Positions 7,275 to 63,737 of a stretch of DNA of 64,000 nucleotides are shown in pieces. Origin of the DNA: Scenedesmus sp. PABB004 (Eukaryota). The stretch is from contig JABVCE010000007.1 in NCBI GenBank assembly GCA_014905635.1, positions 124,001 through 188,000 on the forward strand, read 5' to 3'. Every line of letters begins with the position of its first letter. Position 1 is the stretch's first letter. The notes under the pieces were generated by a model. It was not told where the DNA came from. It did not search any database and saw only the letters and a list, made by a program, of their open reading frames with translations. The position numbers and the translations under genes were made by a program.

Positions 7275-9420
7275 TCAAGAGATGTTGGGGCCGAAGGTAA
7301 AGACGCCGGCGCAGAGCGACTGCACCTCGCGCAGCGCGCTGATGCCCTTGGACGCGCGGCCGGCCTCGTCGAACAGCAGCGCGCCGCTCTTGGCCACGAT
7401 CGGCACGACGTACGGGAACGGCCGCACGCCGCCGGCGGGGCTGCCCGGCCGCGCGCCGTCGCCGCCGCCGCCGCCGCCGCCCATCTTGGCCGCCACGTAC
7501 GCGCCCATCGACTTGCTCGCGTGCCGCACCGCCGCGCGCAGCGCCTCGACAAACCTGCGGCAGACGCGGCGCGGCCGCGGAGGCGCGCGGCGGTCGGCGC
7601 GCGCGTTGGGCGCGCGCGCGCGGGCGCGCGGCGCGCGTTCATTCCTTCCTTCCCCGCGTGGCCACCTGAAGTCTGTGATGATGTCCCGCAGCTCGCCCTG
7701 CAGCTCGTCCACCATGCCCGCCTCCACCGGCGACAGCAGCGCCTCCACGCCCGCGCCTGCGCGCCGCGCACAGCGCGCGCCGCGGCGGCGTCAGACCCGG
7801 CGTCGCCGGCCACCCGCGGCTAGCGGCGGCGCGCCGCGGCGCGCGCCGCGGCGCACCCGTGCGCACGCTGACGGGCGCGGGGCCGGGCGGGACGAGGTAG
7901 TCTGCCCACAGGTCCTCCGCGCGCACAAACGAGTCCTCAAACGCGGCGTGCATGGTGATGACCAGCGCCTCAACGTCCTGCGGGCCCCAGGGCGCAGCGG
8001 CGCGACAGCACGCGCGGCGCGCGGCGTGAGCGCAGGGCCCCGCCGCCCGCCACGCCGCGCCGCGCCGCGCCGCGCCTGCTGCGCCATGCTGCCGCCAAAG
8101 TCAACGCCCGCGAGGCCGCGCTGCACCGCGGCGCGCAGGCGGTGCAGCAGGCCCGCCGCGCCGGACTCGATGAAATAGTCACACCGGAAAAACTCCTGGG
8201 GAGTTCGGGTGGGCGATGGGCGGGTGAGAGGGCGGGTGGGCGGGTGTGCGGCGGAGGCGGCGGGCGCGCGGCGGCGGGCGCGGCGCCACGCGCGCGTCAG
8301 CGCACCTCCTTGGCGCGGTCGCTGAGGCACGGCGGCAGCGCGAGCCGGCCGAGGTGCGCCGCGCCGCCGAGGCCCGGGCCCAGCCCCGGCGCGCCCAGCA
8401 GGCCGCCGGCGCCGCCGCTGCCGGCGGGCTGCAGCTGCGGCAGGCGGCTCTCGAGGTACATGTGCCTGCGGGGGGAGCGGGCGGCGCAGCGGGACGAGGC
8501 TGGCCCGCCGCGCCCGCCGCCGCTGGCAGGCCGCGCCCCAGGTGGCCGCGCCTGCGCCGCGCCGCCGCGCGGCGCGCACACCTGCCGACAATGTGCAGCT
8601 TCAGCCGCACCAGCAGGTCCAGCAGCGGCACGAGCCACACCGCACCCAGCGCGCGCACGAAGCTGTGCGCCGCGAGGCCGCGCCAGAGCGCGAGCTTCTC
8701 CTCGCTGCCCAGCGCCGCGGCGGCGGGGGAGCGGAGCTGCTCGCGCAGCGGCTCGTAGTTGGTCGCCGCGAGCAGCACCTCGTGCAGGCGCGGCAGCAGC
8801 TCCTCCAGCGCCTGGCGATCGCTGAGCTCCTGGATGGACGCAAAGTGCGCCGCCAGGCTCTCGTCCAGCTCGCCGCCGCCGCCGCCGAGCTCACCGCCGC
8901 CGCCCCGCTCGCCGCTGCCCTGCGCGGCGCCGCCCGGGCCGCGCCGCGCCGGCTGGCCCGCGCCGGTGATGCCGCCGAGCGCGGCGAGCTCCGCCGCGCG
9001 CTGCCGCTCGCGCTCCTGCTGCTCCTCCTCGCTGCTGTACCACCTGGACCGGCGGCGGCGGCGGCAGGCCCCCGGGAGGGGGGGGGGGCGTCAGCGGCCG
9101 CGGGCGTCGGCGGCCGCGCGACCCCACGCGCGCTTAGCGCCGCCGCTCGAACGCACCAGTAGTAAGCCGCCGCGCCCGCTGCACCGAGGGCACCCACGGC
9201 CAGGATCTTCCGTCGGTGCCTTGGGGGCAGGCGGGGCGTCGGTCGGCAGCGGCGCGTCGGCGAGAGCAGCAGCGGCGGCGCGCGCGCCGGCGGCGTGCGT
9301 GCGGCGGCGGCCTGGCGGCGGCTGCCTGGATGCTGGCCGCGACACGGGGCAGCTGCTGGGCAGGCGCAGCGCCCCTGCCGGGCCGCAGGGGCGCGCCCAC
9401 CTGCGCCAGAAGGTCGACAT
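7275..9420 (-). CDS. PEX3: Peroxisome biogenesis protein PEX3; 8 exons
   Basis: Spliced product MSTFWRRHRRKILAVGALGAAGAAAYYW...AHFASIQELSD...EEKLALWRGLAAHSFVRALGAVWLVPLLDLLVRLKLHIVGRHMYLE matches plant PEX3 motifs (N-terminal basic stretch plus TM, KL.LW, GR..Y). Confidence 0.9.
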
Positions 9421-9630
9421 CCCGCTGCTGCGCGGCCCAGCGGCCGAGCGGCCGCGGTACGCGCGCGCGCAGGGCCGGGAGTCGCCCGCCGACACCAGGT
9501 GCCGCCGACAGCACGGGCTCGGCGGCCGCAGGCGTGCTCAGGCGACAGGGCTCGGCAGCAGCAGGGCGGTGCTCGTCGTCGAGCGCGGCGCGCAAGCCTG
9601 GTGGCCGCCTTGACACGAGCGGTGCGGCAT

Positions 9631-9923: not shown

Positions 9924-16398
<6,475 letters not shown>

Positions 16399-16914: not shown

Positions 16915-19900
16915 ATGCAGCTGGCCGCGCGCACCGCCCCGGCGGGCGGCCTGGCCGCACGGAGGCGCATGCATGCCGGGGCGTGCGCTCCCGTGGCCGT
17001 GGCCGCGCTGGCGCCCGGGCGCGCCCTCGCGCCGGCGTCCCGGGCGTCCACCCTGGGCGCCGCACGCTGGGGGAGCTCGGCCCTGCCCTTCGCGGCCGCG
17101 CCCCTGCAGCAGCACCGGTGAGCAGCGGCGGGGCGCGCTGCGGCGCGCGCCGCCGCCGCGCACGCCCGCGCATTCGTCGCCCGCCCCGCCCCACGCGGCG
17201 TGCCCGGGACGCCGCGGGGTGTGGTCGCCGCCGCTGCCAGCAGCCCGCCGCCCACGCGCCCGCCCGCCCGCGCCCCGCCCCGCGCGCCGCAGCGCGCCCG
17301 CCGCGGCCTCGCCGCGCGCGCCTCGAGCGCGCCCGGCTCCGGCGGCAGCGGCAAGCGCATCACGCAGCAGGAGTTCACCGACAAGGCCTGGCAGGCGGTC
17401 GTGGCCGCGCCCGAGATCGCGACCGAGTACCAGCAGCAGGTCCGCCGGGGGCCTGCCGCGCCGCGCGACCCGCGCGCCGGCGCCGCCCCACGCCCCACGC
17501 CCCAGCGCGCGCGCCGCGAGCGCCGCACCCCCGGCCGCCCGCGCCCACGCGCCCACGCCGCCGCCGCGCCCGTCCGCCCCGTGCCCCCCGCCCCGCACGC
17601 GGGCAGATCGTTGAGAGCGAGCACCTGCTCAAGGCGCTGCTGGAGCAGCCCAACGGCCTCGCGCGCCGCATCATCAGCAAGGCCGGCAGCGACCCCACGC
17701 GCCTGCTGGACAAGGCCGACGCCTTCATCCGCCGCCAGCCCCGCGTCTCGGGCGACACCGCGCAGCAGGCGCGCGTCTCGCGCGCGCCGCCACGGCCGCC
17801 GCCGCCGGCGCCGCCTCCCTCGAGCGACGCCCCCCGCGCCAGCCTGCCTCCTCACACAACACGCGCGCACGCGCGCACGCGCACACGCGCAGGTGCTGGG
17901 GCGCAACCTGGAGGGCGTGGTGAACAACGCGATGTCGCTCAAGGCCAAGATGGGCGACGGCTTCGTCAGCGTGGAGCACCTCGTGCTCGCGCTCGCCGAG
18001 GACACGCGCTTCGGGGAGGCCCTGTTCAGGGCTGAGGGCCTCACGCGCGCCAAGCTCGACGAGGCGGTCAAGGAGGCGAGCAAGCGCGCTGCGCGCTGCG
18101 TGCTGCGACGCGCGCGCTGTGTGCTGCGTGCTGCGACGCGCGCCACGCGCGCCGCGCCGCTGCGCCCGCCTGCCTCCCCGCGCTGTGCGCCGCGCCTCTG
18201 CCCTCCTCCCCCCACACACACGCACACTCACCCACGCACTCTCCACTCCGCTCCCCTCCCGACCCGCGCCCCGTCGGCGGCGGCAGGTGCGTGGGAGCAA
18301 CAAGGTGGTCGACCAGGACCCCGAGGGCAAGTACGAGGCGCTGTCCAAGTACGCGCGCGACCTCACCGCCGCGGCGCGCGAGGGCAAGCTCGACCCCGTC
18401 ATCGGGCGCGACGACGAGATACGCCGCGCCATACAGGCGCGCACGGCCGCCCCCCGCGCGCGCCCGCGCGCGCGCCCGCCCGCGGCCCGCGGCGGCGGGG
18501 CTTGGGGGCGCTGTCGGGCGCAGGGCTGGGCGCTCGCGCGCGCCGCGCCGCCGCCGTCGGGCGCGCGCCGCGCCGCACACCTGGGCCCACCCACCCCGCC
18601 CGCGCCGCCCCGCCCGCCCTGCCGCAGATCCTGTCCCGCCGCACCAAGAACAACCCGGTGCTCATCGGGGAGCCCGGTGCGCGGCGCACGGCGGCGCGGC
18701 GCGGCGCGGGGCGGGGGTTGGGGCGCGGCGGCAGTGGCGGGCGGGGGCAGGGGGGCGGCGGCGGCGGCGCGCCATGCGGCGCGGCCCCGACTGACTGGCG
18801 CCCGCGGCGCAGGCGTGGGCAAGACTGCCGTCGCGGAGGGCCTGGCGCAGCGCATCGTCGCCGGGGACGTGCCCGAGGCGCTGCAGGTGCGGGACGCCGC
18901 ACGCCGCGCTGGGTGGCACCGCGCCGCACGCCGCGCCGCGCCGCGCCGCCAGGTGCAGCCGGGCGACGCCGGCCGACCCCGCCCACGCGCGGCGCCGCCG
19001 CGCCGGCCCTGCCTGCAGGGTCGCACGCTGATGGCGCTGGACATGGGCGCGCTCATCGCGGGCGCCAAGTACCGGGGAGAGTTTGAGGACCGGCTCAAGG
19101 TGCGGGCGGGGCTGGTGCAGCGCGGGCTGGTGCCGCGCGGGCTGGTGCAGCGGGCTGGTGCAGCGCGGGGCGCGCGCCCCTCCTCCCGCACGCGCCCCCA
19201 TGTGACCGCCCCCCCTCCCGCCCGCCCCCCCTCCCGCCCGCCCGCGCCCGCCCGCGCGCCAGGCTGTGCTGAAGGAGGTGTCCGACTCCAACGGCAAGAT
19301 CGTGCTCTTCATAGATGAGATCCACACAGGTGAGGCAGGAGGCAGGGTTTAGGGCGGCGGCGTGGGGCGCGGCGGCGTGGGGCACAGCACGCACAGCACG
19401 CGGCGCGGCGCGCGCCCCCAAACCCACGCCCGCTCACGCCGCCCCCGCCCCCGCCCCCGCCCGCGCGCGCGCAGTCGTGGGCGCGGGCGCGACGGGCGGC
19501 GCCATGGATGCTGGCAACCTGCTCAAGCCGCAGCTCGCGCGCGGCGAGCTGCGCTGCATCGGCGCGACCACGCTGGACGAGTACCGCAAGTACATTGAGA
19601 AGGACCCCGCGCTCGAGCGCCGCTTCCAGCAGGTGGGGGGGGGGGGGTGCACGCGCACGCACACACACGGGGCGTGTGTGTGTGCCGGACGTGTGTGTGT
19701 GTGTGTGTGCCGGACGTGTGGGGGGCGCGGCGGGGGGGACATGTGAGGTCGCCTGCTGCGTCTCGTGCCTGCCGACGCGCACCCACGCACGCGCACGCGC
19801 ACAAACACGCGCCCTCGCCCGCACCCGCGCCCGCCCGCGCAGGTGTACGTCGACCAGCCGAGCGTGTCGCAGACGGTCTCCATCCTGCGCGGCCTGCGCG

Positions 19901-22900
19901 AGCGCTACGAGGTGCACCACGGCGTGCGCATCAGCGACAGCGCGCTCGTGGAGGCCGCGGTGCTCAGCGACCGATACCTCGCCGACCGGTGACCGCCGCC
20001 GCACCCCGCGCGCGCTGGTGCCGCCGCGCCGCCGCCGCGCAGCCTCGGCGGCGTCAGCCCCCGCTGGCCGACCCGGCTCCTGGCCCCGCTCCCCCCCCCC
20101 CCCCCCCCCGCCCGCAGGTTCCTGCCGGATAAGGCCATCGACCTGGTGGACGAGGCGGCGGCCAAGCTCAAGATGGAGATCACCAGCAAGCCAGAGGTGC
20201 GGGCGGCCCGGGGGGGGGGGGGGGGGGGGCGCGGGCGTGGCGGCGTGGGCGTGGGCGTGGCGGCCGCACCGCCGGGGCGCAGCGCGCGCTCTGCTCCTCT
20301 CTCTTGCAGCGCCGCCGGCCGCGGCGCCTGGCGCTCACCTCACCCCTCCCCACCTCCCCCCCCCCCCTCTCTCCCAGGCGCTGGATGAGATTGACCGCAA
20401 GGTGCTGCAGCTCGAGATGGAGCGACTCTCACTCGGCAAGGTGGGGGGGGGGTGGCGTGTGGGTGGGCTGGGGGCGTGGGCGTGGGCTGGGGGTGTGGGT
20501 GTGAGGGCCTGCAGCACGGGGGCGCGGCGGCAGCGCAGGCGCGCGCGCGCGCTCACGCGCTCACGCCGCCGCGGCCCGCCGCGCAGGCTGCGCCGAGCGA
20601 CCGCGCCGCCGCGGCGCGGCTGGCGGGGCTGGACAGCGAGCTGGCCAAGCTCAAGGCGGACCAGGGGCGCATCACGGAGCAGTGGCGGGTGGAGAAGGAC
20701 GAGATGGGCCGCCTGCAGGTGGGGGGGTGGGGGGGGTGCTGTGTGTGTGTGTGGGGGGGGGTGCTGGCTGCAGCGGCACACGGCAGCGGTGCTGCGGAGC
20801 CTGCTGAGCTCCCCCCCTCCTTCCCTCACCCCCGCAGGACATCAAGGAGGAGATCAACCGCGTGACGCTGGAGGTGGCGCAGGCGGAGCGCGACTACGAC
20901 CTCAACCGGTGCGTGTGTGTGTGTGTGTTATGTGTGTGTGTGGGGGGGGGGATGTGTGTTGTGTGTGTGTGTGGTGTGTGTGTGGGGGGGGGGGGGGGCT
21001 GTGGGGGCGGTTGTGAGGGGCCTGGGCAGCAGGCGCCCAGGGGCTGCTGGGGCGACCGTGCCGCGCTCCCAGCCAGCACCCTCGCACCAGCAGCCCCTGG
21101 GCGCGTGCCGCCCCCCCCCTCCTGCCCTGCCCTCCCCACCCCGCCACGCCGGGCGCGCGGCGCGGCGCGCCGCCGCCTCCCTGCCCTGCCCACCCCGCCC
21201 TGCGCGCCCGCCCGCTGACCGCCACCGCTCGCGCCCTCACCCCCCCCCCCCAAAAAAACCCTGCAGCGCGGCGGAGCTCAAGTACGGGACGCTGATGGAG
21301 CTGCAGAAGCAGCTGCGCGGCGCCGAGGCGGCGCTCGCGGCGCGCGGGGGCGGGGCGCGCATGCTCAAGGAGGAGGTGACGGAGGCGGACATTGCCGAGG
21401 TCATCAGCAAGTGGACCGGTGAGGTTTCATTGGGGGGGGTGGTGTGTGTGTGTGGTGGTGGTGGGGGGGGGGGGGGGGGGGGGGGGGCGTGAGCGGGCGG
21501 GCTGAGGGGGCTGTGTGTGCAGGGCAGCAGCAGCCGCGTCTGCGAGGCGAGGCGGCGCCCGACCCGCCGCCCGCTCACACCCGCCCTCGCGCCGCGCCAC
21601 GCACCCACCCGCCAGGCATCCCAGTGGCCAAGCTGGTGGAGAGCGAGCGCGCCAAGCTGCTGCACCTGCCCCAGGAGCTGCACAAGCGCGTGGTGGGGCA
21701 GGACGACGCGGTCGAGGCGGTCGCAGACGCCATACAGCGCTCACGGTGACGCTCGCGCTGCCGCCGCCGCGCCGCCGTCGGCTGGGGCTCACCGCCCGCC
21801 TGCTGCGCGCCGCGCGCGGCGCGCGCGCGCCCTCCCCGCCGCCCCTGACGCCACACTCTCCCCCCTCCCTCTGCCCTGCCCTGTCCCTAAACCCTGCACC
21901 CCGGCGCGCAGCGCGGGCCTGGCCGACCCGAACCGCCCGATCGCGAGCTTCATGTTCCTGGGCCCCACCGGCGTGGGCAAGACGGAGCTGGCCAAGGCGC
22001 TGGCGGGGTTCCTCTTCAACACAGAGGATGCCATGGTGCGTGTGTGTGTGTGTGTGTGGGGGGGGGGGACGGTGTGCGCGCGCGTGCGTGTGTGGAGGGG
22101 AGGGGGCGATGTGGGAGCGGGGCCGCAAAGGCCCGCCGCCGCCGGCGCGGCGCGCCCGCCCCGCGCCCCGCTCGCCCCGCGCCCTAAACCCCGCCGCCCC
22201 CCTGCCCCCCCCTAAACCCCAGGTGCGCATCGACATGAGCGAGTACATGGAGAAGCACAGCGTGAGCCGCCTCATCGGCGCGCCGCCCGGCTACGTCGGC
22301 TACGATGAGGGCGGCCAGCTCACAGAGGCGGTGCGACGCGCACCGCACCGCACCGCACCGCCGCCGCGCCGCGCCGCGCTGCCCCCGCGCTGCCCCCGCG
22401 CTCGCCCCGCGCTCGCCGCGCCGCCGCTGCTGCTCGGCCGTCGTCTGACGCCCGACCCGCCACCACCGTCACCCCCCCCCCCCCCCCAAGGTGCGGCGCC
22501 GGCCGTACGCGGTGATTCTGTTTGATGAGGTCGAGAAGGCCCACGCAGACGTGTTCAACGTGCTGCTCCAGGCACGGCACAGCGCGCGCACAGCGCGCAC
22601 AGCGCGCACAGCGCACAGCGCGCAGCCCCGCGCCCGCGCCGCCGCGCCGCCGAGAGTGTCGCCGCCGGCGCTCACGCCCGCACCCCCACGCTCCCCCCCT
22701 CCCCCAACCCCACACCCACGTGCACACAAATGCGCAGGTGCTGGACGACGGGCGTGTGACCGACAGCCAGGGGCGCGTGGTGAGCTTCAAGAACACCATC
22801 ATCATCCTCACCAGCAACCTCGGCTCCGCGAGCGTGATGGAGGCGCTCGGCGACAAGGACGCCGCGCGCGAGAGCGTCATGGCCGCCGTGCGGGGGCACT

Positions 22901-23677
22901 TCAGGCGCGGCGGCGCGCGCGCGCTGGCGGCGCGCGGGGCGCACGCGCTGGCGCCGCGCGCACCTCCTCCCCCGCACCTCCCTCACACGCCCCCTCCCTC
23001 ACACCCACACACCCACACCCACACCCACCCCCGCGCAGGCCAGAGTTCATCAACCGCATCGATGAGTTCATCAGCTTCGACCCCCTCGAGCTCGACCAGA
23101 TCAAGGCCATTGTGCGGCTCCAGGTGACGCCGCGGCGACACGGCGCACGGCGCACGGCACGCGGCGCGCGGCGCACAGCGCGCGGCTGCAGGGGCGCCTG
23201 CCGGACGCTCCTCCTCCGCGCTTCCCCCCGCCCCCCTCGCCGCCTGCGGGCCCGCCCGCACGCCACCTCACCCCCGCGCCACCTCCCCCACCCACCTCAC
23301 CCCCCGCCACCTCACCCCCCCCCCCGCCACCCACACACACACGCGCGCGCGCGCGCACACGCGCGCAGGTCAAGCGCGTCGCGGAGCGGCTGGAGGACAA
23401 GAAGATGCGCCTCGTGCTGAGCGAGGCGGCGATCGACCACCTGGCCGCGGTGGGGTACGACCCCGTGTACGGCGCGCGCCCGGTCAAGCGCGCGGTGCAG
23501 CGCGAGCTCGAGACCGGGCTCGCCAAGGCGCTGCTGCGCGGCGAGTTTGAGGAGGAGGACACCATCCTGGTCGAGCCCGCGCCGGGGGGCGGGCTGTCGT
23601 TCGAGCGCGGGCCCAAGGCCGACGCGGTCGGCGCGCCCGCCGGCGACGGCTACGCGCTCGCGGGCAGCCGCGGCTGA
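16915..23677 (+). CDS. CLPB3: Chaperone ClpB/Hsp100, probably plastid-targeted (ClpB3-like); 23 exons
   Basis: Ala/Arg/Ser-rich transit-like N-terminus, then [28 protein letters not shown], Walker A GEPGVGKT, LFIDEIH, coiled-coil middle domain (AAELKYG), second Walker [37 protein letters not shown] and [13 protein letters not shown]. Confidence 0.97.
19633..23367 (+). repeat. Intronic (GT)n/(CA)n microsatellites and long poly-G/poly-C runs in ClpB introns
   Basis: Examples are the G run at ~20209-20229, (GT)n at 20909-20983 and C runs at ~20091-20109 and ~21240-21251. They are concentrated in this part of the window. Confidence 0.8.
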
Positions 23678-31900: not shown

Positions 31901-34176
31901 CCTGCCACCCGCAGATGGACTACAAGAACGAAAACCCCAACATGTGGGACAGCGTGGCCTACCGGTGCGCGGCGCCGCCGCCGCAGCTCACCCGCGCCCT
32001 GCCGCCGCAGCTCACCCTCGCCCCCGCCCCGGGGCTCGCCCCAACCGCCGCACCCCGCCCGCCCCGCCCCGCCGGCGCGCGCGCAGCATCAAGTACGTGG
32101 CCCACCCCATGGCGGGTGACGCGTGGTGCATCTACCCCAGCTACGACTTCACGCACTGCCTCTGCGACGCGATCGAAAACATCACCCACTCACTCTGCAC
32201 GCTCGAGTTTGAGTCGCGCCGCGCGAGCTACTACTGGTGCGCGGCGGCCGCGCGGCCCGGGTGCCCCGCGCGCGCGTGCGTGCCTCGTGTGTGTGCGCGT
32301 GCGCGCGCGTGCGTGCGCAGCGGCGCCGGGCCCACGCAGCCCGCCCCCGCCGCCGCGCCGCTTGCCCATCTGCGTCCAGGCTGCTGGATGTGCTGGGCAC
32401 GTACAAGCCGGTGGTGTGGGAGTACAGCCGGCTCAACATCACCAACACGGTCCTCTCCAAGCGCAAGCTCAACCGCCTCGTTACAGACGGCCACGTGAAC
32501 GGCTGGGACGACCCGCGGTGCGTGCGGCGCGCGTGCGGCGCGCTGCTGCCGCGGCTCGGCGCGGCACCCCACGCGCGCCCGTCCACAGCCTCCGCGCGCC
32601 GCGCGCCGCGCCCACGCCGGCCCCCCTCCCGCGCGGCCACCACAACGCGCGCAGGCTGCTGACGCTCGCGGGCCTGCGGCGGCGCGGCGTGGCGCCGGGT
32701 TCGATCAACGCGTTCTGCCGCGAGGTCGGCATCACGCGCAACGCCAACGTCATACCATACCACAAGCTCGAGCACCACGTGCGCGCGCACCTCGACGCAA
32801 CCAGCCCACGCACGCTCGCGGTGCTGCGCCCGCTCAAGGTGCGCGCGCCGCGCGCGGCGCCGCGCCGCACGCGGCGCTGCGCTGCGGCACGCCCGCGGCC
32901 GCCGCCGCGCCGCGGGGCGCGCGGCGCCGCGCCGCGCTCCTGAGCTGACCCCCGCGCCCCCGCGGCGGGCGGGGCGGGCGGGCGGGCGGCAGGTCGTGCT
33001 GACCAACGTGCCCGAGGGCGAGGCGCGCACCGTGAGCGGCGCGACGCTGCCGGGGCGGCCCGAGAGCGAGTCGTACGGCCTGCCGTTTGGGCGCGTGGTG
33101 TACATCGAGGCCAGCGACTTCCGCCTGGCCGACGCCAAGGACTACTACGGCCTCGCGCCCGGCAAGAGCGGGATGCTGCGGTGCGGCCCGCGCCGCGCGG
33201 CGCGCGCGCGCCGCGGCGCGGCGTGGCTGGCGCGCGCGCCCTGCCGCGCGGCGCGTCCTGCGACCCGGGCCGCCGCCGCCGGCTGCCGGGGCCGGCCGCC
33301 GCGGCGGGGGCGGGGGCACGGGCGGCGCGCTGCGCGCGCTCCCGCGCCGCCGCGGCGCGCGTCGCTCACTCGCGCGCGTCCCTCGCTGTCACGCGGCTGC
33401 GCGGCCTCCAGGTACGCGTGCCCCATCACCGTCACCGGCTACTCCACGGGCCCCGACGGCGCCGTGGCGGAGGTGACCGCGGAGGCAGACCTCGACTGGG
33501 ACGCCGCGGGGCGCAAGCCGCCCAAGGGCGTGCTCAACTGGGTCGCCCAGCCGTCGCCGGGGACCGACCCGGAGCGCTGCGAGGTGCGCGGCGGCTGCGC
33601 CGCGCTGCGCCGCGCTGCCCCGCGCCCGCGCTCACAGGCTCGCGCTCACAGGCTCGCGCTCCCTGCTCCCCCCCCCTCCCTCGCTCCCTCTCTCCCTAAA
33701 CCTCCCCCCGCGCCCCGCCCCCCGCGTCCACGCAGGTGCGGCTGTACGACGTGCTCTTCCGCAGCGAGGCGCCCGACGCGCTCGGCGAGTCCTGGCTGGA
33801 CGACCTCAACCCCGGCAGCCTCGAGGTGCTCAGCGGCGCGATGGTCAACCCACACCTCGCGGCAGCAGCGCAGGTGCGCGCCGCGCCTTGCACCGCGCTG
33901 TGCGCCGCCCCGCCTGCCCGCCCGCAGCCGTGCCGCGCCCCTCGCCCGCGCCCCTCTGCCCCCCCCCCCCGCCCCGCCCGCTCCCCCGCTCACCCGCCCC
34001 GGCCCTCCCCTGCCCCCTCCCCTGCCCCTGCCCTGGCGCCGCCGCGGGCGCAGCCGTTCCAGCGGTACCAGTTTGAGCGGCTCGGCTACTTTTGCGTCGA
34101 CCCCGACAGCCGCCCCGGCGCGCTCGTGTTCAACCGCACCGTCAGCCTGCGCGACAGCTTCCCCAGGGCCAAGTGA
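28947..34176 (+). CDS. QARS: Glutamine--tRNA ligase (cytosolic GlnRS with eukaryotic N-terminal domain); 19 exons
   Basis: [20 protein letters not shown] (HIGH), [43 protein letters not shown] (KMSKS equivalent), GWDDPRLLTL and [15 protein letters not shown]. Confidence 0.98.
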
Positions 34177-43319: not shown

Positions 43320-43415
43320 CGCGCGCGGCGGGGCGGCAGGCTGCAGCGGTAACACGGCCGGAGCACGGCCGGAGCACGGCCGGAGCGCCGCGGCGCCGGC
43401 CCGCGCTGCTCGAGG

Positions 43416-43821: not shown

Positions 43822-44057
43822 CGCCCCCGCCGTGTTTCTGACTGCCCGGAGCAGGAGGAGGAAGCAGCGGCGCCGACTGGCGACTGGAGCAGCGAGGCCG
43901 TCGCGACGCGGTTGACCGGCCACTACCGCACCACTGCGGCGCCACGGGCGACCTCTGGCAGACACCGCACTCCCACGCAGCCAGCGCGTCTCCCGGCGTC
44001 CTGGAGGAGATCAGGCCGAGCAGCGGTGCAGCGCGCGCTCGCGCGGCCGCCGTCGAG

Positions 44058-47052
44058 ATGGGCGACGTGCACTACATCGTGGACAAGCTCAACGCGCCGC
44101 CCTTCTCCCTGGGCGAGAGCCTCGTGAGCTTCAGGTCCGCGCCGCGGCAGGCGCTGCGGACGCCGCCGCGGGGCGCCGCTGCTGCTCACGCCGCGCCTGC
44201 CGCTGACCGCGGCTTGCAGCGAGAAGACGCCCGAGGAGCTGCTGCAGCTGCTGTCCGACGTCTTCGCCCGCATCAGCCCCACCACGCACCAGGCACGCGC
44301 GGCGCGGCTCGCGCGGGCAGCACAGCCGGCCGCCGACCGCCGCCGCGCGCGCGCCGCCCGCAGCGCCATGCCGGCGGCCACGAGACCGCGGAGCAGGCGG
44401 CGGAGCGGCTCGCCGCCTTCCTGCGCACCGTCAAGTTTGCGCCCGGCATGGACGCGTGAGAGGGCGCCGCGCGGCGCGGGCGGGCGGCTTGGCTCCTGCT
44501 GCCTGGCGCGGCTCTCACGTCGCCGCGCGCGCCGCGCCGCAGGCTGACCTTCCGGCAGCTGCTCGCGGCGGCGGACCGCGACACCGTGCACGGCGTGCTC
44601 AAGTGGGTGCTCGCGCAGGGCGCCGCGCTGGAGAAGACCGCGTTCGTGGGCTTCCACCTCAGCCTGCCTGAGGTGCAGCGGCGGCGCGTGGCTGCGCCGC
44701 GGGCACCCGCGCTGCCCGCGCCCGCGCCTGCGCCGCGCGGCTTCCTCCCACGCGGCTGCCCGGCCCGCCGCCAGATGCCGGAGGAGCTGGGGTACCACCC
44801 CGAGGTGCTGGAGCTCAAAGACGCCATCCGGTCGCTGCAGGGCGAGTTTGTGGCAACGCACAAGGCGCTCGACGCGGCGCACGGCGGCGTCAAGTGCGGC
44901 GCGCGCTCGCGTCTCGCGCTGGTGCCGGCGCCGCGCGTGTTGCTGCGTGCGATGCGGACCCGCCGCCGCCGCCGCCGCGCAGGGAGCTTCCGGCGCTGCG
45001 GGCGCGCATCAAGCAGATGGCGGAGGAGAAGGAGCGGCTGGGCGAGAGGGTCGAGGCCGCCGCGGCGGCCGCGGCCACGCTGCCGGACGCGGGCGGCTTC
45101 CGCAACGCGTGCGTGTCGCTGCGCCAGGAGCACGACCGCGAGGTCGCGATCAGCCAGAAGCTGCAGGCGCAGCAGCAGGCGATGGAGCGCGCCGAGGCGG
45201 CGTACGCGCGCAGCGCGGGGCGGCTGCGTGAGATGCAGGCGGCGCTCGCGGCGCAGGGCGGGGGCGACGGCGCGCGCGTGCTGGAGGTGCTGCAGGACGA
45301 CGTGGCGCGCCTGCGCGCGCAGGCACGCGCCGCGCGCCGCTGCGCCGCGCTGGGGCCCCGCAGCCCTGTCACCCTGTGGCGCGCGACGTGGCTGAGGCGC
45401 CGGCGCGGCGCTCCGGCAGGTGACGACGCGCTTGCCGCGCGAGCTGGAGGCCAAGCAGCGCCGCCTGGCGGCGGTGCAAGAAACGCTGAGCAACGGCATC
45501 AACACCGAGGCGCGCCGGGGGGCTGCGCATGCGCAGGCGCCGCGCCGCGCGGCGCCGCGGCGCGGCCCGCCCACGCGCCGCCCGCCCGCCCGCCCGCCGC
45601 GCAGGGCGACGTGCAGCGACTGGTGGCGCAGGAGGCGGCGCTGCGGCAGCAGCTCGATGCGACGCAGGAGCGCCTGGACGCGGCGGAGCGCGCGCGTGCG
45701 TCGGACCGGGCGTTCCTGCAGGCGCGCGCGCGCGCGCGGGGGCAGGGCGGCGCCCTGCGCCGGCGGCCCGGCGGCCGCGCGGGAGCGAGCTGCGCCGGGC
45801 CAAACCCCCGCCACGCGATCGCAGGTGCGGCAGGCCCACCAGATGGCGGCGCTGGTCGGCCGCAAGCGCGCCGAGCTGGCCGCCAAGCTGGAGCGCCTGC
45901 AGGAGCGGCGCGACGCGCTGGCGGCGGAGCTGGACAGCAGCGGTGCGTCGCGCGAACGCGTGCGCGCGCTGCGTGCTGCGCGGGCCGCCGCGACCCACCG
46001 CCTCGCTCGCCCGCCGCCGCGCAGGCGCGCGCGTCGGCGCGTGCGGCGTGAGCGACGCGGAGTGGGCGGCCAAGTACGCTGAGATCAAGGCCCAGCTGCC
46101 AGCGTTCAAGGCGCTCAAGCAGCAGCTCGCAGACCTGGAGGCGGAGGCGTTTGTGCTGCAGCGCACGCTGGAGGTGCTGGGGCAGCAGGAGGAGGAGCTG
46201 CGCGGCCGCACGGGCGGCGAGGAGCCGCGCGCGGGCGCCCCGGCTGCGGGCGCGGAGACTGACGAGGCCGGCGGCGCAGAGCTGGTGCGCGCGTGGGGTT
46301 GTGTGTGTGTGTGGGGGGGGGGGGGCTGCAGCTCCTGCCAGCCGGACCGGCTGACTGGCCGCGCCGCGCCGCGTGCTGCGGCCAGGCGGCTGACGACTCC
46401 GACGCGGAGGCCGTTGCAGCGGCGGTGGCGCACCGAAAGGCGGAGCTCGCGCCCGCCATCCAGGAGCTGCGCGCGCTGCGCGCGCAGCACCAGGTGCGGT
46501 GCTGCTGCGCGCAGCGCGGCCGGCCAGGCGCGCGGCGGCCTGGGCGGGCGCGCCCGAGCCGCGGCGGGCCGCTGCGCCGCCGTGCCGGCGCAGGAGCTCG
46601 AGGCGGTGCACGACGAGCGCAAGGCCGCGTACGGCGCAGCCCTGGGTGGGCTGGAGGCGGCGGTGTCGGGGCTGGAGGGCGACGTGGCCGCGCTGGCGGC
46701 CGAGGCGGACGCCGCGGCGGCGGCGCTCGCGCAGGCCAGGGCGCGCGTGGCGGAGCTGGGCGGCAGCGTCGAGCGCCTCGCCGCCGCCGGCGGCGAGGCG
46801 CTGCGCCGCCGGTGCCAGGCGCGGCTGGCGGAGGCCGAGGCCGACCTGCGCCGCCTGCGCGAGCAGCAGCGCGGCGCGCGCGACGCGGCCGCGCACGGCC
46901 AGGCGCAGGCGGCGATGCTGTCCGACCTCGCCGCCCTGCTGGACCTCAAGGCCGGCCTCGCAGCGCAGCAGCAGCACCAGCAGCGCGCGCTCGGCGGCGG
47001 GGCGCAGCAGCTCGGCACGGCCTCGTTCAACGGCAATGTCATGGTGCTGTGA
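44058..47052 (+). CDS. IFT81: Intraflagellar transport protein 81; 12 exons
   Basis: The N-terminal CH domain MGDVHYIVDKLNAPPFSLGESLVSFSEKTPEELLQLLSDVFARISP..LEKTAFVGFHLSLPEMPEE is collinear with Chlamydomonas IFT81, followed by long coiled coils and the C-terminal ..L.DL..LL..K..NVMVL*. Confidence 0.92.
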
Positions 47053-47310: not shown

Positions 47311-47367
47311 CGGCGGGCGGCGCGGCAGGCCCGCGGCCCAGCGCGCGGCGCGGCGCGCCGCCGACTG

Positions 47368-53672: not shown

Positions 53673-55940
53673 TCACGCGGCGCCCTGGTCGGCGGCGGCG
53701 CACGCGCGCCGCTGGGCGAGCGCGGCGCGCGCGGCGTCCAGCGGGTGCTGCAGCGCCTCCGCCACCCGGCCACCCTTGGCACCGCCGCTGCCACCCTCGC
53801 TGGGCGCGGCCGCGGGCTGCGGCGGCGGCAGCTCGCGCGGCGCCTGGTCTGCCGGGGGCGCTGGGTCGCCTGCCGCAGCGCCGCGCCCCTCCAGCTCCTC
53901 CTCCAGCCCCTCCTCCGCCGCCGCCGCCGCCGCCACGTCGCTGCCGCCGAGCCGCCGGCTGCGTCCGCGCGACAGGCTGTGCCGCAGCTGGTCCGCGGCG
54001 GGAAAGACCCACGCGCTCAGCACCCGCCCGGAGGAGTTGAGCCCGCTGTGCATAAAGTCCTGCGGCCGCGCCGGCAGCGGCGGCGGCAGCACCGTCTCCC
54101 GCGCGCGGGGCCGGCTGCCCGCGCCGCGCGCCCGCGCAGCGCGCCGCGCTGCCACGCGCCTTGACGCTCGCCTTGGCGCGCTGCCGGTGCGTCGGCTCCG
54201 GTGGCGGCGCGCCCGCGAGGAGGTGGCGCGCGAGGAACTCAGACCCCTTGGCGCCGCGAAAGAAGCGGTGCCGCAGCAGCGCCTCCGCGCTCGGGCGCTG
54301 CGCCGGCTCCTTGCGCAGGCAGGCGCCCACGACGTCGCGGAAGGCCTGGGGCCCGGCGCGGCGGCCGGCGCACGCGCGGCGTGGGCCGCGAGGCGGCGCG
54401 GCGCCGCGCCACCGCGCGCCGCGCGCCCCCGCGCGCCGCGCCTTTGAGAACTTGCGGCCGCCCGGCGCGCCGTCGTCGGTGAGCGAGGGCGGCGGGTCCT
54501 GGATGGCGGCGAGGATGACGCGCAGCGGCGGCAGCCGCGCGCGCGGCGGGGCGCCGAGCGCGAGCTCCACGAGCGTGATGCCGAGCGACCAAATGTCGGC
54601 GGATGAGTCATAGCTGCCCGGGGTAGCGCAGGGGCGGCAGCGCGCGTGGGCGCAGCGGGGCGGCGGGGCGGGGGCGGCGAGGGCGAGGCGGCGCGGCAGG
54701 CAGAGGGCTCACCCCTCGGCTGCCTGGCTGAGCACCTCCGGCGCCATCCAGCACGGCGAGCCCACAAACGTCTTGGCGCGCAGGTCGCCCAGGCCGCCCA
54801 ACGCGTCGCCGGCGCCGCCGCCACTGCCGCTGCCACCGCCGCTGCCGCTGCCACCGCCGCTGCCGCCGCCGCCGCTGCCGCGCGGGCTGCTGGCCAGAAT
54901 CGAGCGAGACACGCCAAAGTCGCCCTGGCGGTGGGGCGGGTGCACGGGGCTCGGCCGGCGGCGCACGGTGCGCCGCCGCGCGCCGCGCGCGCGGCCAGCC
55001 GCGCGCCCTCGTCCGCCCCACGCGCGCACCAGCATGACCTGCCCCGCCTCAGAGACGAGGATGTTGTCGGCCTTGATGTCACGGTGGATGCCGCCCGCCG
55101 CGTGCAGATAGCGCAGGCCCAGCAGCACGGTGCGGCCGATCGCTGCGATCACAGGCTCGGGCAGGCCCTGCGGCGCAAGCACTCAGCACGCCGCACGGTC
55201 TGCCCCCGCCGCCGCCAGGCGAGCGAGGCGGCCTGACCTGACCTGACCGGCCCTGACCTGACCTGCTCGGGGGCCAGGGACTCGCCCTCACGCCCGCGCA
55301 CCTGCTTGTACGTCGCGTGGCGCAGCATGACCGAGCGCACCGAGCCCGCGCCGAGCAGGGGCGTCACCATCCACAGCGTGTCCCCGCACACAAACGCTGC
55401 CAGGAGCGGCAGCAGGCTGGGGTGCTGGAAGCCGCGCATGAGCGTCACCTCGCGCACGAGGTTTGCCAGCTCTCCGTCTCCGTCGGCGTCGATGTTGAGC
55501 TGCCGCACCGCCACGGTGGCGTCCAGCGCCTTGCAGCGCGCGCGGTAGACCTGCGCGCGGCGGCACGGCGTCGGGCGCTGCGCGCGAGCTGCCGTCCAGC
55601 CAGCTGGCGGAGGAGGTCACGCCGCGGCGGCGCGGCGCCGGCCAGGGCCTCACCACCGCGGCCGCGCCCTGCCCGATCTCCTCCAGCAGCTCGTAGCCGT
55701 CGGCGCTCGCCGGCCAGTCCCTGCGGCGGAGCGTTGTTGTTGGCGCGCGCGCGCCGCGCCTCTGCCGCGGCGGCGAGCGATAGCGACCCGGCGGCGGCGT
55801 GCGCCGCTGCAGCCGTGCACGGCCGGCACTCACGTCCGCATCGCGCAGTCGCTCTTGGTGCCCGACTTCGGCCGGGCCAGCGTGCGGCTCCCCGCCGCAA
55901 CAAAACTCGCCCACAAACGGTTCGGCGGCGTTGCGGCCAT
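53673..55940 (-). CDS. STE20-family (Fray/OSR1/BLUS1-like MAP4K) Ser/Thr kinase with Arg at the beta-3 Lys position; 8 exons
   Basis: DWPASADGYELLEEIGQGAAAVVYRARC..TVAVRQL..LVREV..HPSLL..GSVRS..GLPEPVIA..IHRDIKADNILV..GDFGVSR..KTFVGSPCWMAPEVL..SADIWSLGITLVELALG..RKFSKAFRDVVGACL..RPSAEALLRHRFF; C-terminal SAW.F motif. Confidence 0.9.
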
Positions 55941-59003: not shown

Positions 59004-60622
59004 TCACGGCACGTCGACCATCGCGCCCGCCGCCAGCGCCGCCGCGCCCTCGCGCCCCGCCGCGCCGCCGGCGCCGCCGCTGCTCGGCGCGCTCTCCCCG
59101 CCCGGCAGCACGCCCGCGGCCGTGACGATGATCGCCCGCAGCGGCTTGCCGTACTGCCGCCGCACGTTGTCGGCGCGGTCGTCGCCGATGAAGGCGGCAA
59201 AGCGGTTCAGCTGCTGGCTGCGAATGTCGGGCTGGAACGACGGCACCTGCCGCGGCGGCGGCGGCGGCGGCGCGCGGGGCGCGCCGTGTGGGGCGACGGC
59301 GGCGCAGCAGCGCAGCGGCGCGGCGCGGCGCGGCGCGGGCGGCGGCAGCTGCGCGCCTGCGAGGCGCGGATGACGGTGTCCATGCCCTCCTCGACGCGGC
59401 CAAACACGGCGTTGAGCCCGTCCAGGCGCGGCACGGGGCCGGGCCCCGTGGTAATGAGGAACTCCAGCTGCCTGCGCCGCGTGCGCGGGGCCCGTGTGCA
59501 TGCGTGCGCGTGTGCTTGTGTGTGCGTGGCAGCGGCGCGACGCGCGAGCGGCGGCGCCGCGGCGGGCGGCAGGCGCGCGCGGCGCGGCGCGCTGCTGCGA
59601 GCGCGGCGGCGGTGGGCCGCACCTGTAGGCGCTGCGCTCCCTGACCTTGGGGTCCTCGTCGTTCTCGCTCAGGCTCAGCGACACGGTGCCCGGGCGCGCG
59701 TGCGTCGCGCGGAACGGCCCCGACGCCGCGAGGTCCGAGTTGGGCTGCGCGGGCGCGCGCGGCGGCACGGCGGCGGGCCGCGCGTGTGGGCACAAGCGCG
59801 GGTGGGCGTGGGCGGGCCCGCCCCCGCCGCCCCCGCTGCCGGGCGCCGCGTGCCGCGCGCGCGCACCAGCAGTCCCGGCGGCGCCTCGGCGTCGCCCATG
59901 CGCCGGTTGCCCTGCCGCCCAAGCTGCACGTACTCGCCGGGGCTGATGCGGCTGAACGCGCTGCCCGTGAGCCCGCCGGCGCGCACTGCAGCAAGTATGT
60001 TGGCCGTCGTCACGGGGCGAGCCGGCCATACAGGCCTGCACGCGCGGGCGGGCGGGCGGGCGAGGTGGTGCTGCCGGCGGCTGGCCCCGCCCGTGCCGGC
60101 GCTGCGCGGGCGCTGCCGCCGCGCACCGATGACGACCCGCCCCGCCGGCGCCGCGTCGGTCGGCAGCACCGACTTGTCGCCGAGCGTGCGCTCGCCCGCG
60201 GGCTTGAACGCGGAGCTCGCGATGCCGATGTCCAGGTAGATGCGGTCGGTGACGGTGAGGTCCAGGTCGCCGAGCTCCGCGGCCGCGGCGGAGCGCGGGG
60301 ACGGCGAGAGCAGCAGCCCGCACGCCGCGCCCGCCACTGCCGCGCCCGCCAGCAGCGCGCGGCGACCGCTGGCGTCGCTGAGGGCGGGCTGCTGCTCGCC
60401 AGCGGAGTCTGGCAGGGCGCGCTCCGCCTGCTTCGGCTCCGGCCGCTGCTGCTGCTGTTGGTGCTGCGCAGGCTCCGGCCGCTGCTGCTGCTGCGTCGCG
60501 CCCGCCGCCGCCGCTGCGCGTGCCGACGCCCGCCCTGCGCGTGCGGGGGCGAAGGGGCGCCAGCTGGCACGCGTCATTGCTGCTGCTGACGCCCGGCGCG
60601 GCGCCTGGGGCGCGCGGTCCAT
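59004..60622 (-). CDS. CYP28: Thylakoid-lumen cyclophilin-type PPIase CYP28; 5 exons
   Basis: Bipartite transit peptide with twin-Arg SGRRALL..AAAA; VTDRIYLDI; GRVVIGLYG; HARPGTVSLSLSENDED; EFLITTGPGP.P.LDG.N.VFGRV; FAAFIGDDRA. An alternative start is at 60577. Confidence 0.92.
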
Positions 60623-60938: not shown

Positions 60939-63737
60939 ATGAACCGCTCGCTGCACGCCAAGGTGCGCAGGGGCAGGCGGCGCCCCGGGGCGGCGCTGCT
61001 CGCGGTGGCAGCGCTGCTCGCGGCGGCAGCGCTGCGCGCGGTGGCAGCGCTGCTCGCGGCGGCAGCGCTGCGCGCGGCGGCAGCGCTCCCGCGGTGGCCT
61101 GCCACCGCTGGAGGAGGCGGCTGGGGCTGCCCGCGCAGCAGCGCTGCGCGCACCACCACCGCAACCCACCGGCGGCACCCCTCCTGCCACCACCTGCCGC
61201 AGCCGGGTGCGTTCGCCGCCGCGGCGGGCGGCGGCGGCGGCGGCGACGGCGGGCTCGGCTTTGAGCTCGGGCGCCTGCAGAACGAGATCAAGGCCCGCGA
61301 CCGCGAGCTCGACGCCGCGCGGCGCGAGATCACCACGCTGCGCTCCACCCAGTGCAGCAACGAGCGGTGCGGCCCGCGCGCGCAGCGCCGGCCAGCCCCG
61401 CGCCAGCCCGCCGCCGCCGGCCAGCGCGCTGAGACGCGCCGAGACGCGCCCGCTGCGCAGGCTGCTGCAGCAGCGCGCGGGCGAGATGGACCGGCTCAAG
61501 GAGCGCCTGCTCAAGGCGGAGGGGTGCGGCGCGCGCGCGCAGCCGGCGCGGCCCGCTGGCGCGCCGGCGGCGCCTGGCCGGCCAACCGCCATCGGACGTG
61601 CTGATCCCCCCCCCCCCCCCCCCCGCCTCCTGCCTCCTCCCCGGCCCCGCGCGCAGCGCGTCCGCGGCACAGGCCAAGGAGCTGGCGCTGGTCAAGGCCG
61701 ACAGGCGCAAGCTCGAGTCGGCCGCGGCCGACCTGCAGCGCCACACCGACAAGCTCAAGGAGCGCGTCACGCAGCTCAGCAACAAGGCGCGGACGGCGAC
61801 GCGCCGCGCGGCGCCGGCGGGCCGGCAGGGCGGCGGGCGCACGCTCCTGCGCTCACGCGCGCGGCGCCCGCGTGCCCGGCCGCCCCCGCGCGCGTGCCGC
61901 AGGGCCCCGCGTTCAACGAGCAGGTCGCGGCGCTGCAGGCGGAGGTCAAGATGCTCAAGGCGACCAACGCGCAGCTGAGCGAGGACCACAAGGTGCTTGG
62001 CGGGGGCCCTACCGCCCCGCTGCGGCCGCCGCCAGGCCGGGCGGGCGCCCCTGACCGCGCGCCCGCGCCGCCCGTGACGCGGCCAGGCCGCGTGCTCGCT
62101 GATCCGCGCCAAAGACAAGGAGCTGGACGCCAACCGCGCCCGCCTCAGGGCTGCGGCGGCGCTGGAGGCGCGCGTGGCGGTGCGGCGCGGCACGGCGCGG
62201 CGTGGCGCCGCTGCGGTGCCGCTGCGTCGCCAGCCGCTCCACGCCGCCGCCCCCGCTCCGCGGCCAGGCCCTGGAGAACGAGCTTGCAGCTGCCAAGAAG
62301 GAGGTGGACGCGGCGGGGTCCGAGATCCGCACGCTGCAGCAGGCGCGGCGCGGCTGCGGCTGCGAGGCCGGCAGCGCGCGAGTCCGGGCGCGGGGCCACG
62401 GCTGACGCTGGCGCGCGGGCGCGCGTGCACCGCGCAGGTCGCGCGCGGCAAGGATGGTGACATCGCGTCGCTGACCAAGGCCCAGGCGGCCGCCAACAAA
62501 ACGCTCGAGGGCGCCCGCCAGGAGCTGAGCGCCGCGCGCGCGACGCTCAAGGTGCGCCGCGCCGCGGCCGCCAGGAGCGGCGGCGCCTGCCGCGCTCGCC
62601 GCCCAGCGCCGCCCCGCGCTCCGCCGCGCGCAGGCAACCGAGGCGCGCGCGGCAGAGCTGGCGGCGGAGCTGTGCGTGAAGCGCGACGAGCTGGCGCGCG
62701 CGAGCGCGGTCGCGGGCCGCGCCGCCGCCGCGGACGCGCGGCTCGTGAAGGGCGAGGGCACGGTGCCGGCGGGTGAGGGCCGGCCAGCTGCAGAGAGCCC
62801 GCCGCGTGGCCGGGGGCCCTCAGGTGCCGCGCCCCGACCCTGCTCCCGCCCGCCGCGCCCGCCTCGCAGGGCAGCACCTTGCGGAGGTCAAGGCGCTCAA
62901 CGGCCAGCTTTCCCGCGTGCGGGAGCGCCTCGCGCTGGCCGAGCGGGACCTCGCTGTGGCGCACGTGATCAAGGCCGGCGCGCGCGAGCGGCAGCGCCGG
63001 CACAGGCCGCCGCCGCGCGCGGCCCGGCGGCGGCCGGGCGGCTGGCGGGCTGACGCGCCGCCCCTGCCGCCGCCGCTGCTCCCCGGCCGCAGGAGAAGTA
63101 CCGCACTGCGCTGGAGTTTGCCAACATCAGCATCGGCGACCTGGACGCCGCAGCGGCCGCGGCGAGCGCGGCGGGCGCGGCCGCGCCCGGCGGCGCGTCG
63201 GCCGCGCGCAGCGCCGCGCGCCGCTCGCTGGGCGGCTCGAGCGCGCACCAGCTGATGGGCCTGCCCTCGCCCGCGGGCCGCGGCGCGGCGCGCGCCGAGC
63301 CGGCGGCGGCGCCCGCGCCCGCGGACGACGCCGCGGCCGCGGCCGCGGAGCTCGGCGGCGCCCTGGCCGGCCTCGCGCTGGGCGGCGCCGCGACCGAGGC
63401 GGCTGCGTCGGAGGCGGCCGCACCCGTGGCAGCTGCCCCGGAGGCGGCCGCCCCCGAGGCGGCGCAGCCGGCGGCGGAGGAGCAGCAGGCGGAGGAGCCG
63501 GCGGGCGCGCCGGACGCGGCCGCCGGCGACGCCGCCGGCGCCACGCCGGCGAGCAAGAACGCCAAGAAGCGCGCGCGCGCCAAGAAGGCCAAGTCCAAGG
63601 CAGCCGGGCAGCCGGCGGCGGAGGCGGGCCAGGCCTGCGACGACGACGGCAAGGCCAAGGCCGTGGCTGTGGCCGAGGAGACCACGCGGCGCAGCACGCG
63701 GCGCACGCGCCGCGACCAGGCGGCCGGCGAGGCGTGA
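60939..63737 (+). CDS. MAP70: Microtubule-associated protein 70 (MAP70)-like coiled-coil protein; 11 exons
   Basis: FELGRLQNEIKARDRELDAARREITTLR; VAALQAEVK..LSEDHKAACSLIRAKDKEL; TVPAGQHLAEVKALNGQLSRVRERLALAER..IKEKYR. These are collinear with remembered plant MAP70 blocks (ELNRLENEVRDKDREL; LQDDNRALDRLTKSKE; VMPVKQWLEERR.LQGE...LRDKLA). Confidence 0.75.
60993..61097 (+). repeat. 18-bp minisatellite (GCGCTGCTCGCGGYGGCA), about 6 copies, in MAP70 intron 1
   Basis: Tandem repeats are directly visible in the sequence. Confidence 0.85.

Follow-up and report, generated by a model that had tools for sequence, protein, structure and literature searches.

Gene content and composition of the window

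The sequence analysed here, called the window, is a 64,000-nucleotide stretch of chlorophyte nuclear DNA from Scenedesmus sp. PABB004 (contig JABVCE010000007.1, positions 124,001 to 188,000 of the forward strand), in which a large share of the introns begins with GC instead of GT. Pfam searches of stop-to-stop frames on the plus strand identify many short exons of USP39 (zf-UBP and UCH domains), delta-COP, ClpB and the glutamine-tRNA ligase gene GlnRS. Beyond these genes, GCSH, IFT81 and a MAP70-like gene are located in the window. The closest protein matches are chlorophycean and Sphaeropleales-like, including Tetradesmus, Monoraphidium, Volvox and Chlamydomonas. A deposited glutamine-tRNA ligase of Scenedesmus sp. 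PABB004 (P0123) is 100% identical across the core of every GlnRS exon, and the ends of its high-scoring segment pairs (HSPs) that extend into introns score lower. Rfam models, applied at their gathering thresholds, gave no match in the whole 64-kb window.

The GC content is 74-81% in each 4-kb bin and about 79% overall. The cited passage on the Scenedesmus sp. PABB004 genome gives 39.8 Mb and 78.5% GC, and Tetradesmus obliquus is listed in the same source at about 57% GC (PMC12571836). Among sequenced eukaryotes the alga studied here has one of the highest GC contents. GT dinucleotides constitute 3.5% of the window and GC dinucleotides 21%, and G or C occupies the third position in 95% of the aligned codons. 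In the verified introns of USP39, ClpB and GlnRS, read on the transcribed strand, G and C make up 85% of the bases (C 49%, G 37%, T 8% and A 7%), which implies a strong pressure on any T. The 15 bases upstream of the acceptor in these introns are mainly C, so that the polypyrimidine tract is in effect a poly-C tract.

Identification of splice junctions

Full-length homologues were gathered for four genes, ClpB, GlnRS, USP39 and IFT81, and compared with the window by a spliced protein-to-DNA dynamic programme in which the dinucleotides at the intron boundaries were unrestricted. For each intron all frame-compatible pairs of donor and acceptor were listed, and every pair received a score for the match of its joined peptide to homologues of other species, seven at most. 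Counting required at least three supporting homologues (four for IFT81) and a per-residue score of at least 2.0 (1.4 for IFT81). Junctions under these thresholds and rows labelled 'other' or 'ambig' were excluded before counting. The rows left out include artefacts at gene ends (17112, 9799, 12984-13844, 33184-33655, 46959 and 47144) and the unresolved junctions at 30396 in GlnRS and at 44280, 45964 and 46309.

The first pipeline, built on ungapped tblastn chains with P0123 as primary sequence, mis-chained the GlnRS exons at about 29569-30191 because the HSPs read through in-frame introns that lack stops. It added GT-AG introns of GlnRS at 33181 and 33584. The junction near 30396 was resolved as GT-AG at 30395, a placement that depends solely on the annotated protein P0123.

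An ab initio scan relied on coding potential and on splice-site matrices blind to position +2 of the intron. It reproduced 48 of 48 training junctions and recovered all nine other plus-strand sites, three MAP70 sites among them. Its strict filter favours AG by construction, and the strict set is no independent evidence for a rule about AG at the exon end. A loose set of 112 pairs outside the training genes (52 with C, 48 with T, 9 with G and 3 with A at +2) contained false pairs across gene gaps and was not used for any fraction.

GC-AG introns on the plus strand

By homology alone the four genes contain 56 well-supported introns, 37 GT-AG and 19 GC-AG, and the acceptor is AG in all 56. The introns counted per gene, the GC-AG introns (each starting at the donor position) and the further plus-strand sites in other genes are listed below, with the exon-intron boundary marked by a slash.

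USP39, plus strand: 12 introns by homology only, 7 GT-AG and 5 GC-AG
10239..10339, plus strand: USP39 GC-AG intron (cgccag/GCGCGG); optimum by homology only (7 homologues), without a GT-AG alternative
10843..10970, plus strand: USP39 GC-AG intron; GC-AG scores 635, best GT-AG 254
11357..11444, plus strand: USP39 GC-AG intron; GC-AG is the optimum, no GT-AG alternative
11776..11939, plus strand: USP39 GC-AG intron; GC-AG scores 566, unconstrained maximum 571, no GT-AG alternative
12039..12163, plus strand: USP39 GC-AG intron; GC-AG scores 738, best GT-AG 598
ClpB, plus strand: 21 introns by homology only, 16 GT-AG and 5 GC-AG
17769..17892, plus strand: ClpB GC-AG intron; GC-AG scores 662, GT-AG 616 with 7 homologues (743 and 689 in another run)
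18076..18286, plus strand: ClpB GC-AG intron (aaggag/GCGAGC); GC-AG scores 624, best GT-AG 498
18437..18627, plus strand: ClpB GC-AG intron; GC-AG is the optimum, no GT-AG alternative
22572..22737, plus strand: ClpB GC-AG intron (ctccag/GCACGG); GC-AG scores 829, best GT-AG 617
22905..23038, plus strand: ClpB GC-AG intron; GC-AG scores 483, best GT-AG 218
GlnRS, plus strand: 15 well-supported introns by homology only, 9 GT-AG and 6 GC-AG
29569..29724, plus strand: GlnRS GC-AG intron; GC-AG scores 496, best GT-AG 262; the positional orthologue in locus L020 is GT
30183..30328, plus strand: GlnRS GC-AG intron; GC-AG is the optimum, no GT-AG alternative
30608..30740, plus strand: GlnRS GC-AG intron by homology only; L020 has GT and L018 has GC at the orthologous position; P0123 uses the junction
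30894..31035, plus strand: GlnRS GC-AG intron by homology only; GT in 7 of 7 relatives sharing the position
31529..31684, plus strand: GlnRS GC-AG intron; GC-AG scores 556, best GT-AG 300; 3 GT and 1 GC in relatives
31826..31914, plus strand: GlnRS GC-AG intron; GC-AG is the optimum, no GT-AG alternative
IFT81, plus strand: 8 introns past the filters by homology only, 5 GT-AG and 3 GC-AG (45323, 45510 and 45722)
44293..44363, plus strand: IFT81 probable GC-AG intron (caccag/GCACGC); GC-AG scores 58, GT-AG 17, unconstrained maximum 65; ab initio margin 27 bits
45323..45419, plus strand: IFT81 GC-AG intron; GC-AG scores 272, best GT-AG 123
45510..45604, plus strand: IFT81 GC-AG intron; GC-AG scores 224, best GT-AG -30
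45722..45824, plus strand: IFT81 GC-AG intron; GC-AG scores 179, best GT-AG 67
15865..15991, plus strand: delta-COP GC-AG intron (aaccag/GCGCGC); Pfam Adap_comp_sub is contiguous over the two exons (93-164 and 163-225); ab initio margin 24 bits
36839..36958, plus strand: GCSH GC-AG intron, in-frame, 120 nucleotides; an insertion between collinear matches to the solved structure of the pea H-protein (chain 1dxm_A); ab initio margin 11 bits
61787..61902, plus strand: MAP70-like GC-AG intron candidate from the ab initio scan, margin 15.7 bits
62343..62437, plus strand: MAP70-like GC-AG intron candidate from the ab initio scan, margin 16.5 bits
62974..63092, plus strand: MAP70-like GC-AG intron candidate (atcaag/GCCGGC) from the ab initio scan, margin 5.8 bits, weak donor score

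At the GC sites in the homology-only analysis the best GT-AG alternative is nonexistent or scores far lower, and judged by dinucleotide frequencies GC..AG would occur at about 1% of arbitrary boundary pairs. In one run the deposited P0123 itself was seen to use five of the GlnRS GC junctions. A preliminary description of the window, made by tracing conserved proteins by hand, had placed 20 GC donors in these four genes, and 19 of them were recovered exactly. At the twentieth, 44293 in IFT81, the closest homologue alone gives a non-canonical pair as the unconstrained optimum, and GC-AG, the best solution of a canonical type, lies within tolerance. Judged from protein homology, the observation of GC-AG introns is thus confirmed. 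The same description estimated that about 34 of about 140 introns (24%) have GC donors. This is plausible given the 19 of 56 (34%) found here, a fraction that is probably biased upwards since the four genes were singled out for their GC donors.

The deposited IFT81 protein P0339 (876 amino acids, window 42471-47047, plus strand) is 100% identical to the query stretch and is apparently a faulty model. Its start lies in an open frame further upstream (42471-43235), the in-frame intron 44673-44774 is left in, and the exon ending at the GC donor 44293 is skipped. The donor 45323 is joined straight to the acceptor 45824, which drops two more exons ending in GC donors, so that three are skipped overall.

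A run of GCCCGC-type hexamer repeats is found at 11820-11880 on the plus strand, inside the USP39 GC-AG intron 11776-11939, and comparable short GC-rich tandem repeats are present in several further introns.

The GC donors could be artefacts of tracing or annotation. True GT sites might lie nearby, the supposed introns might be coding insertions that are retained, or the assembly might be wrong at +2. The junctions are deduced from homology, and at 79% GC stops are so rare that wrong frames remain open. Gene models in this genome are error-prone, as P0339 with its retained intron and skipped exons illustrates, and the length is a multiple of three in 3 of the 25 plus-strand GC introns. However, with unrestricted boundaries there were 19 sites at which GC-AG tied for the top score or came within tolerance of it and at which GT-AG was absent or much worse, and the junction peptides align free of gaps to up to seven homologues. 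Retention would shift the frame in the other 22 of the 25 introns. The 36 strict ab initio introns outside the training genes have T (21) or C (15) at +2 and never G or A, though the scan was blind to this position and G makes up 37% of intron bases. Introns are also present at the same positions in relatives (see below). An origin of the GC donors in such errors is very improbable.

Sequence context of the donors

AG is found at positions -2/-1 in 19 of 19 GC donors and in 19 of 37 GT donors in the four genes (Fisher test, p=1.4e-4), and none of the 18 donors that lack a preceding AG has GC. All 25 plus-strand GC sites have the form AG/GC...AG. This agrees with the preliminary description, in which AG precedes every GC donor and GT donors follow many dinucleotides; in ClpB, GlnRS and USP39 the latter are AG (16), CG (13), TG (2) and GA (1). 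In the same three genes the base at -1 is G in 47 of 48 donors, GC and GT taken together, far more often than expected from the 45% G at codon third positions.

The two classes resemble each other on the intron side. G is found at +3 in 17/19 GC donors and 35/37 GT donors, C at +4 in 18/19 and 26/37 (44 of 56 overall, 79%) and G at +5 in 19/19 and 33/37, and T occupies +6 in just 4 of the 56. The combination GCG at +3 to +5 occurs in 14/16 GC donors and 21/32 GT donors of ClpB, GlnRS and USP39, which is not a significant difference. Among the 25 plus-strand GC introns 19 have the donor GCGCGC or GCGCGG. Positions +3 to +6 had been described as non-consensus for GC sites. They do depart from the canonical sequence, but this is simply the local GT-donor consensus GTGCG, common to both classes.

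Donor strength was measured as the number of matches to CAG/GTRAGT over nine positions; the consensus and its pairing with U1 are as given in the cited passage of PMC3167603. GC donors have 5-6 matches of 9 and GT donors 5-8, and none of the 56 falls below 5. A GC donor without A at -2 would have 4 or 5 matches, and many such donors would therefore lie under the floor of 5. A pairing threshold of at least five matches combined with an unmodified U1 thus reproduces the AG rule. Together with the five-match floor, this requirement for AG amounts to a dose-response experiment set up by nature, in which the amount of U1 pairing required at a 5' splice site can be studied.

The preliminary description had seen in these donors a possible change in 5' splice-site recognition. 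A variant U1 5' end or U6 ACAGAGA box, or relaxed checking by U1C/Prp8, would let C at +2 and +4 be read like T and A, and the AG rule would then reflect a shift to recognition of the exon end (U5/U1 positions 9-11). With +4 mostly C and +6 rarely T, canonical U1 pairing past +3 is confined to +5, the G at -1 makes an unusually strict exon end, and a mismatch in one third of the introns is a heavy load on an unmodified system. Yet the canonical threshold of five matches covers 56 of 56 donors as well as the absence of GC donors without AG, and C at +4 is just moderately over the 49% background of the introns. Such a change in recognition is rather unlikely. In a more specific form, in which the spliceosome has co-evolved with the genome and accepts C at +2 and +4 through an alteration of the U1 5' end, of the U6 ACAGAGA box or of a contact made by U1C/Prp8, it is quite unlikely; recognition may in that case depend mainly on the exon-end AG with G at +1, +3 and +5. 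If altered small nuclear RNAs (snRNAs) were present, the finding would be considerably more interesting, as a natural re-tuning of the 5' splice-site code of the major spliceosome.

GlnRS introns in metagenomic relatives

A comparison of orthologous intron positions, as proposed in the preliminary description, was made for GlnRS. A metagenome scan with P0123 gave 37 loci, and 11 intron-containing loci with 37-74% GC were analysed. These relatives have 55 GT-AG and 5 GC-AG well-supported introns (5/60), compared with 6 GC-AG introns of 17 in the GlnRS gene of the window (p=0.012). Four of the six GC introns in the window have positions in common with relatives, and the orthologous donors are GT in 12 of 14 cases. 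The 'gccaag/' junction, for example, is GT in 7 of the 7 relative loci that have it. The comparison indicates that the GC introns of the window are old introns in which T at +2 has been replaced by C and the A residues at +3 and +4 have been lost as well.

The GC donors of the relatives are all preceded by AG (5/5) and have the classical GCAAG or GCAGG form, unlike the GCGCG of the window, a difference that could be taken as support for changed recognition. However, the GT donors of these less GC-rich relatives already have the form GTG[ACGT]G with a variable +4, so the weak +4 and +6 are a habit of the lineage and not peculiar to this genome.

The reverse situation is seen at residue 335 of P0123, where the donor is GC (cag/GCAAG) in L017:97-373 and L030:501-713, both about 64-67% GC, and GT (cgag/GTGTGA) in the window. 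The GT or GC state thus changes independently between lineages. The locus L011:81-2994 (74% GC) holds an almost complete GlnRS with just two well-supported introns, both GT-AG, and high GC is therefore not always tied to numerous introns or to introns of the GC type.

The shared positions also bear on whether the GC-AG introns are a separate class, U12-type or otherwise non-canonical, removed by different machinery. In favour of this are their non-canonical donor dinucleotide and the striking uniformity of the AG/GCGCG context, with GCGCGC or GCGCGG in the 19 of 25 introns mentioned above. The U12-type motifs are a donor like [AG]TATCCTT and a branch site like TCCTTAAC near the 3' end, and a search for these patterns in the 25 plus-strand GC introns gave no match to either. 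GC and GT introns are alike in their +3 to +5 consensus and in length (medians of 138 and 148 nucleotides in USP39, ClpB and GlnRS), and when the classes are pooled the acceptor is AG in 48 of 48 introns of these genes. The GC introns moreover occupy the ancestral positions of GT introns in relatives. On the grounds of motifs, length and shared positions this reading was rejected, and its probability is negligible.

Origin of the GC donors

The likely explanation is that these are U2-type introns of a chlorophyte with about 79% GC, in which a bias towards G and C changed T to C at +2 and the change was kept only after exonic AG. The strong bias, either mutational or due to biased gene conversion, would turn T at +2 into C in about a quarter to a third of the introns, and the C would persist only at donors with AG at the end of the exon. 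There, pairing of -2/-1 (and often -3) with a standard U1 5' end and contact with U5 loop 1 would offset the C:A mismatch at +2. On the intron side the usual G of the lineage would be retained at +1, +3 and +5, with C, the commonest intron base, at +4. The analysis shows the junctions, the AG rule, the consensus common to both donor classes, the floor of five matches and GT at orthologous positions in relatives. An unmodified U1, a bias driven by mutation or conversion, and selection on pairing strength as the filter are inferred from these; the introns would be removed by the major spliceosome (U1/U2/U4/U5/U6).

Two parts of the original interpretation agree with this explanation. GC pressure fits as the driver because most orthologous donors in relatives of lower GC content are GT, and compensation at the exon end fits because none of the verified GC donors lacks a preceding AG. 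The data do not require altered machinery, be it relaxed proofreading by U1C/Prp8 or variant U1/U6 snRNAs.

Several observations weigh against an origin by GC bias filtered through U1 pairing. GC donors have on average fewer matches to CAG/GTRAGT than GT donors (5.6 vs 6.1, p=0.013), so compensation is thinner than usual, and they are without the A at +3 or +4 found in the relatives' five GC donors and in the classical compensated site. C is found at +2 in 50% (19/38) of the AG-preceded donors, compared with about 86% predicted if the position were neutral; either T is still selected at +2 or equilibrium has not yet been reached. The ab initio scan also produced a high-scoring, unverified GC donor that does not follow AG (63162-63467, plus strand, gccgcg/GCGAGC, 306 nucleotides), which may span a missed exon or be a genuine exception to the AG rule. 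GC-AG splicing is itself deduced from protein homology and one deposited annotation, P0123, and the four genes were picked because GC donors had already been flagged in them.

Comparison with other GC-rich algae

Typically about 98% of introns in animals, fungi and plants are GT-AG according to the cited passage of PMC7072748. In the cited passages on GC-rich algae the proportions are different. Emiliania huxleyi has 56-60% GC donors, supported by reverse transcription PCR (RT-PCR) and attributed to GC content (PMC4028052). The pelagophytes Aureococcus and Pelagomonas have 14-17% GC-AG introns and the low-GC Aureoumbra 0.3% (bioRxiv 10.1101/2024.10.30.620910). GC-AG introns are described as far commoner at high genome GC, 'approaching 40%' in Aureococcus, and T to C at +2 as a U1 mismatch that is offset by a stronger remainder of the site (PMC3167603). 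The baseline of about 1% that had been used for the window leaves out these published algae at 14-60%. That E. huxleyi and the pelagophytes have similar or higher GC-AG fractions, attributed in these passages to genome GC, is a further argument against changed recognition, and GC-AG abundance by itself is no pointer to a new splicing system.

As presented in these sources, E. huxleyi and the pelagophytes share with the window a GC-rich genome, a two-digit percentage of GC donors and preserved AG acceptors. Gene predictors tuned to GT miscall models in both settings, with the Joint Genome Institute (JGI) models in E. huxleyi and P0339 in the window as examples, and programs that give GC donors too little weight will produce wrong gene models in such genomes. 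The lineage studied here is Chlorophyceae, and the GC content is 78.5-79% in window and genome versus 63-70% in E. huxleyi and the pelagophytes. Despite this, E. huxleyi exceeds the window in its share of GC-AG introns, which here is about 24-34%. The present analysis puts numbers on the strict rule of AG before GC and on the GCGCG intron side, neither of which is stated in the cited E. huxleyi and pelagophyte passages. The junctions of E. huxleyi were confirmed by RT-PCR, whereas those of the window are deduced from sequence.

The introns of the window also resemble the classical GC 5' splice sites known from animals and plants, which constitute about 1% of introns and in which the mismatch of C at +2 is offset elsewhere, as the cited passages describe (PMC3167603, PMC7072748). 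They have the AG acceptor in common, the introns of the window are probably U2-type too, and their mismatch may be offset at the exon end. For classical GC sites, as in the window, positions are often common with GT introns in other species. The differences from the classical sites as described there are a frequency 20-30 times higher, any compensation on the exon side only (-2/-1), and GCG[CG] instead of AAGT at +3 to +6.

A search of the open literature, with subscription journals and supplements outside its scope, gave no report of GC-AG abundance in Scenedesmus sp. PABB004 or any green alga. The explanation by GC pressure is already published for other GC-rich algae. The window is a green-algal instance at very high GC with a quantified AG requirement, and it extends the trend between GC content and GC-AG introns from a haptophyte and pelagophytes to a green alga at extreme GC.

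Minus-strand candidates and other features

The ab initio scan gave eight AG/GC candidates on the minus strand, six of which pass the strict filter. They are listed with the donor at the higher coordinate.

59247..59356, minus strand: cyclophilin GC-AG intron candidate (tcgcag/GCGCGC), ab initio, margin 20.6 bits; Pfam Pro_isomerase matches the exon upstream of it
54346..54441, minus strand: GC-AG intron candidate, ab initio, margin 13.9 bits
54060..54159, minus strand: GC-AG intron candidate, ab initio, margin 19.0 bits
48040..48139, minus strand: GC-AG intron candidate, ab initio, margin 14.1 bits
47717..47823, minus strand: GC-AG intron candidate, ab initio, margin 12.6 bits, acceptor under the strict filter
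38221..38354, minus strand: GC-AG intron candidate, ab initio, margin 14.4 bits, acceptor under the strict filter
37699..37893, minus strand: GC-AG intron candidate, ab initio, margin 9.3 bits
7978..8075, minus strand: GC-AG intron candidate (cagcag/GCGCGG), ab initio, margin 20.3 bits

Pfam searches of ten minus-strand exons flanking these candidates identified no exon except that of the cyclophilin.

At the left edge of the window (1-900, plus strand) the Pfam profile of the CAP domain (cysteine-rich secretory protein) is matched by two open frames, by one in its first part and by the other in its last part, which suggests a split CAP-domain gene.

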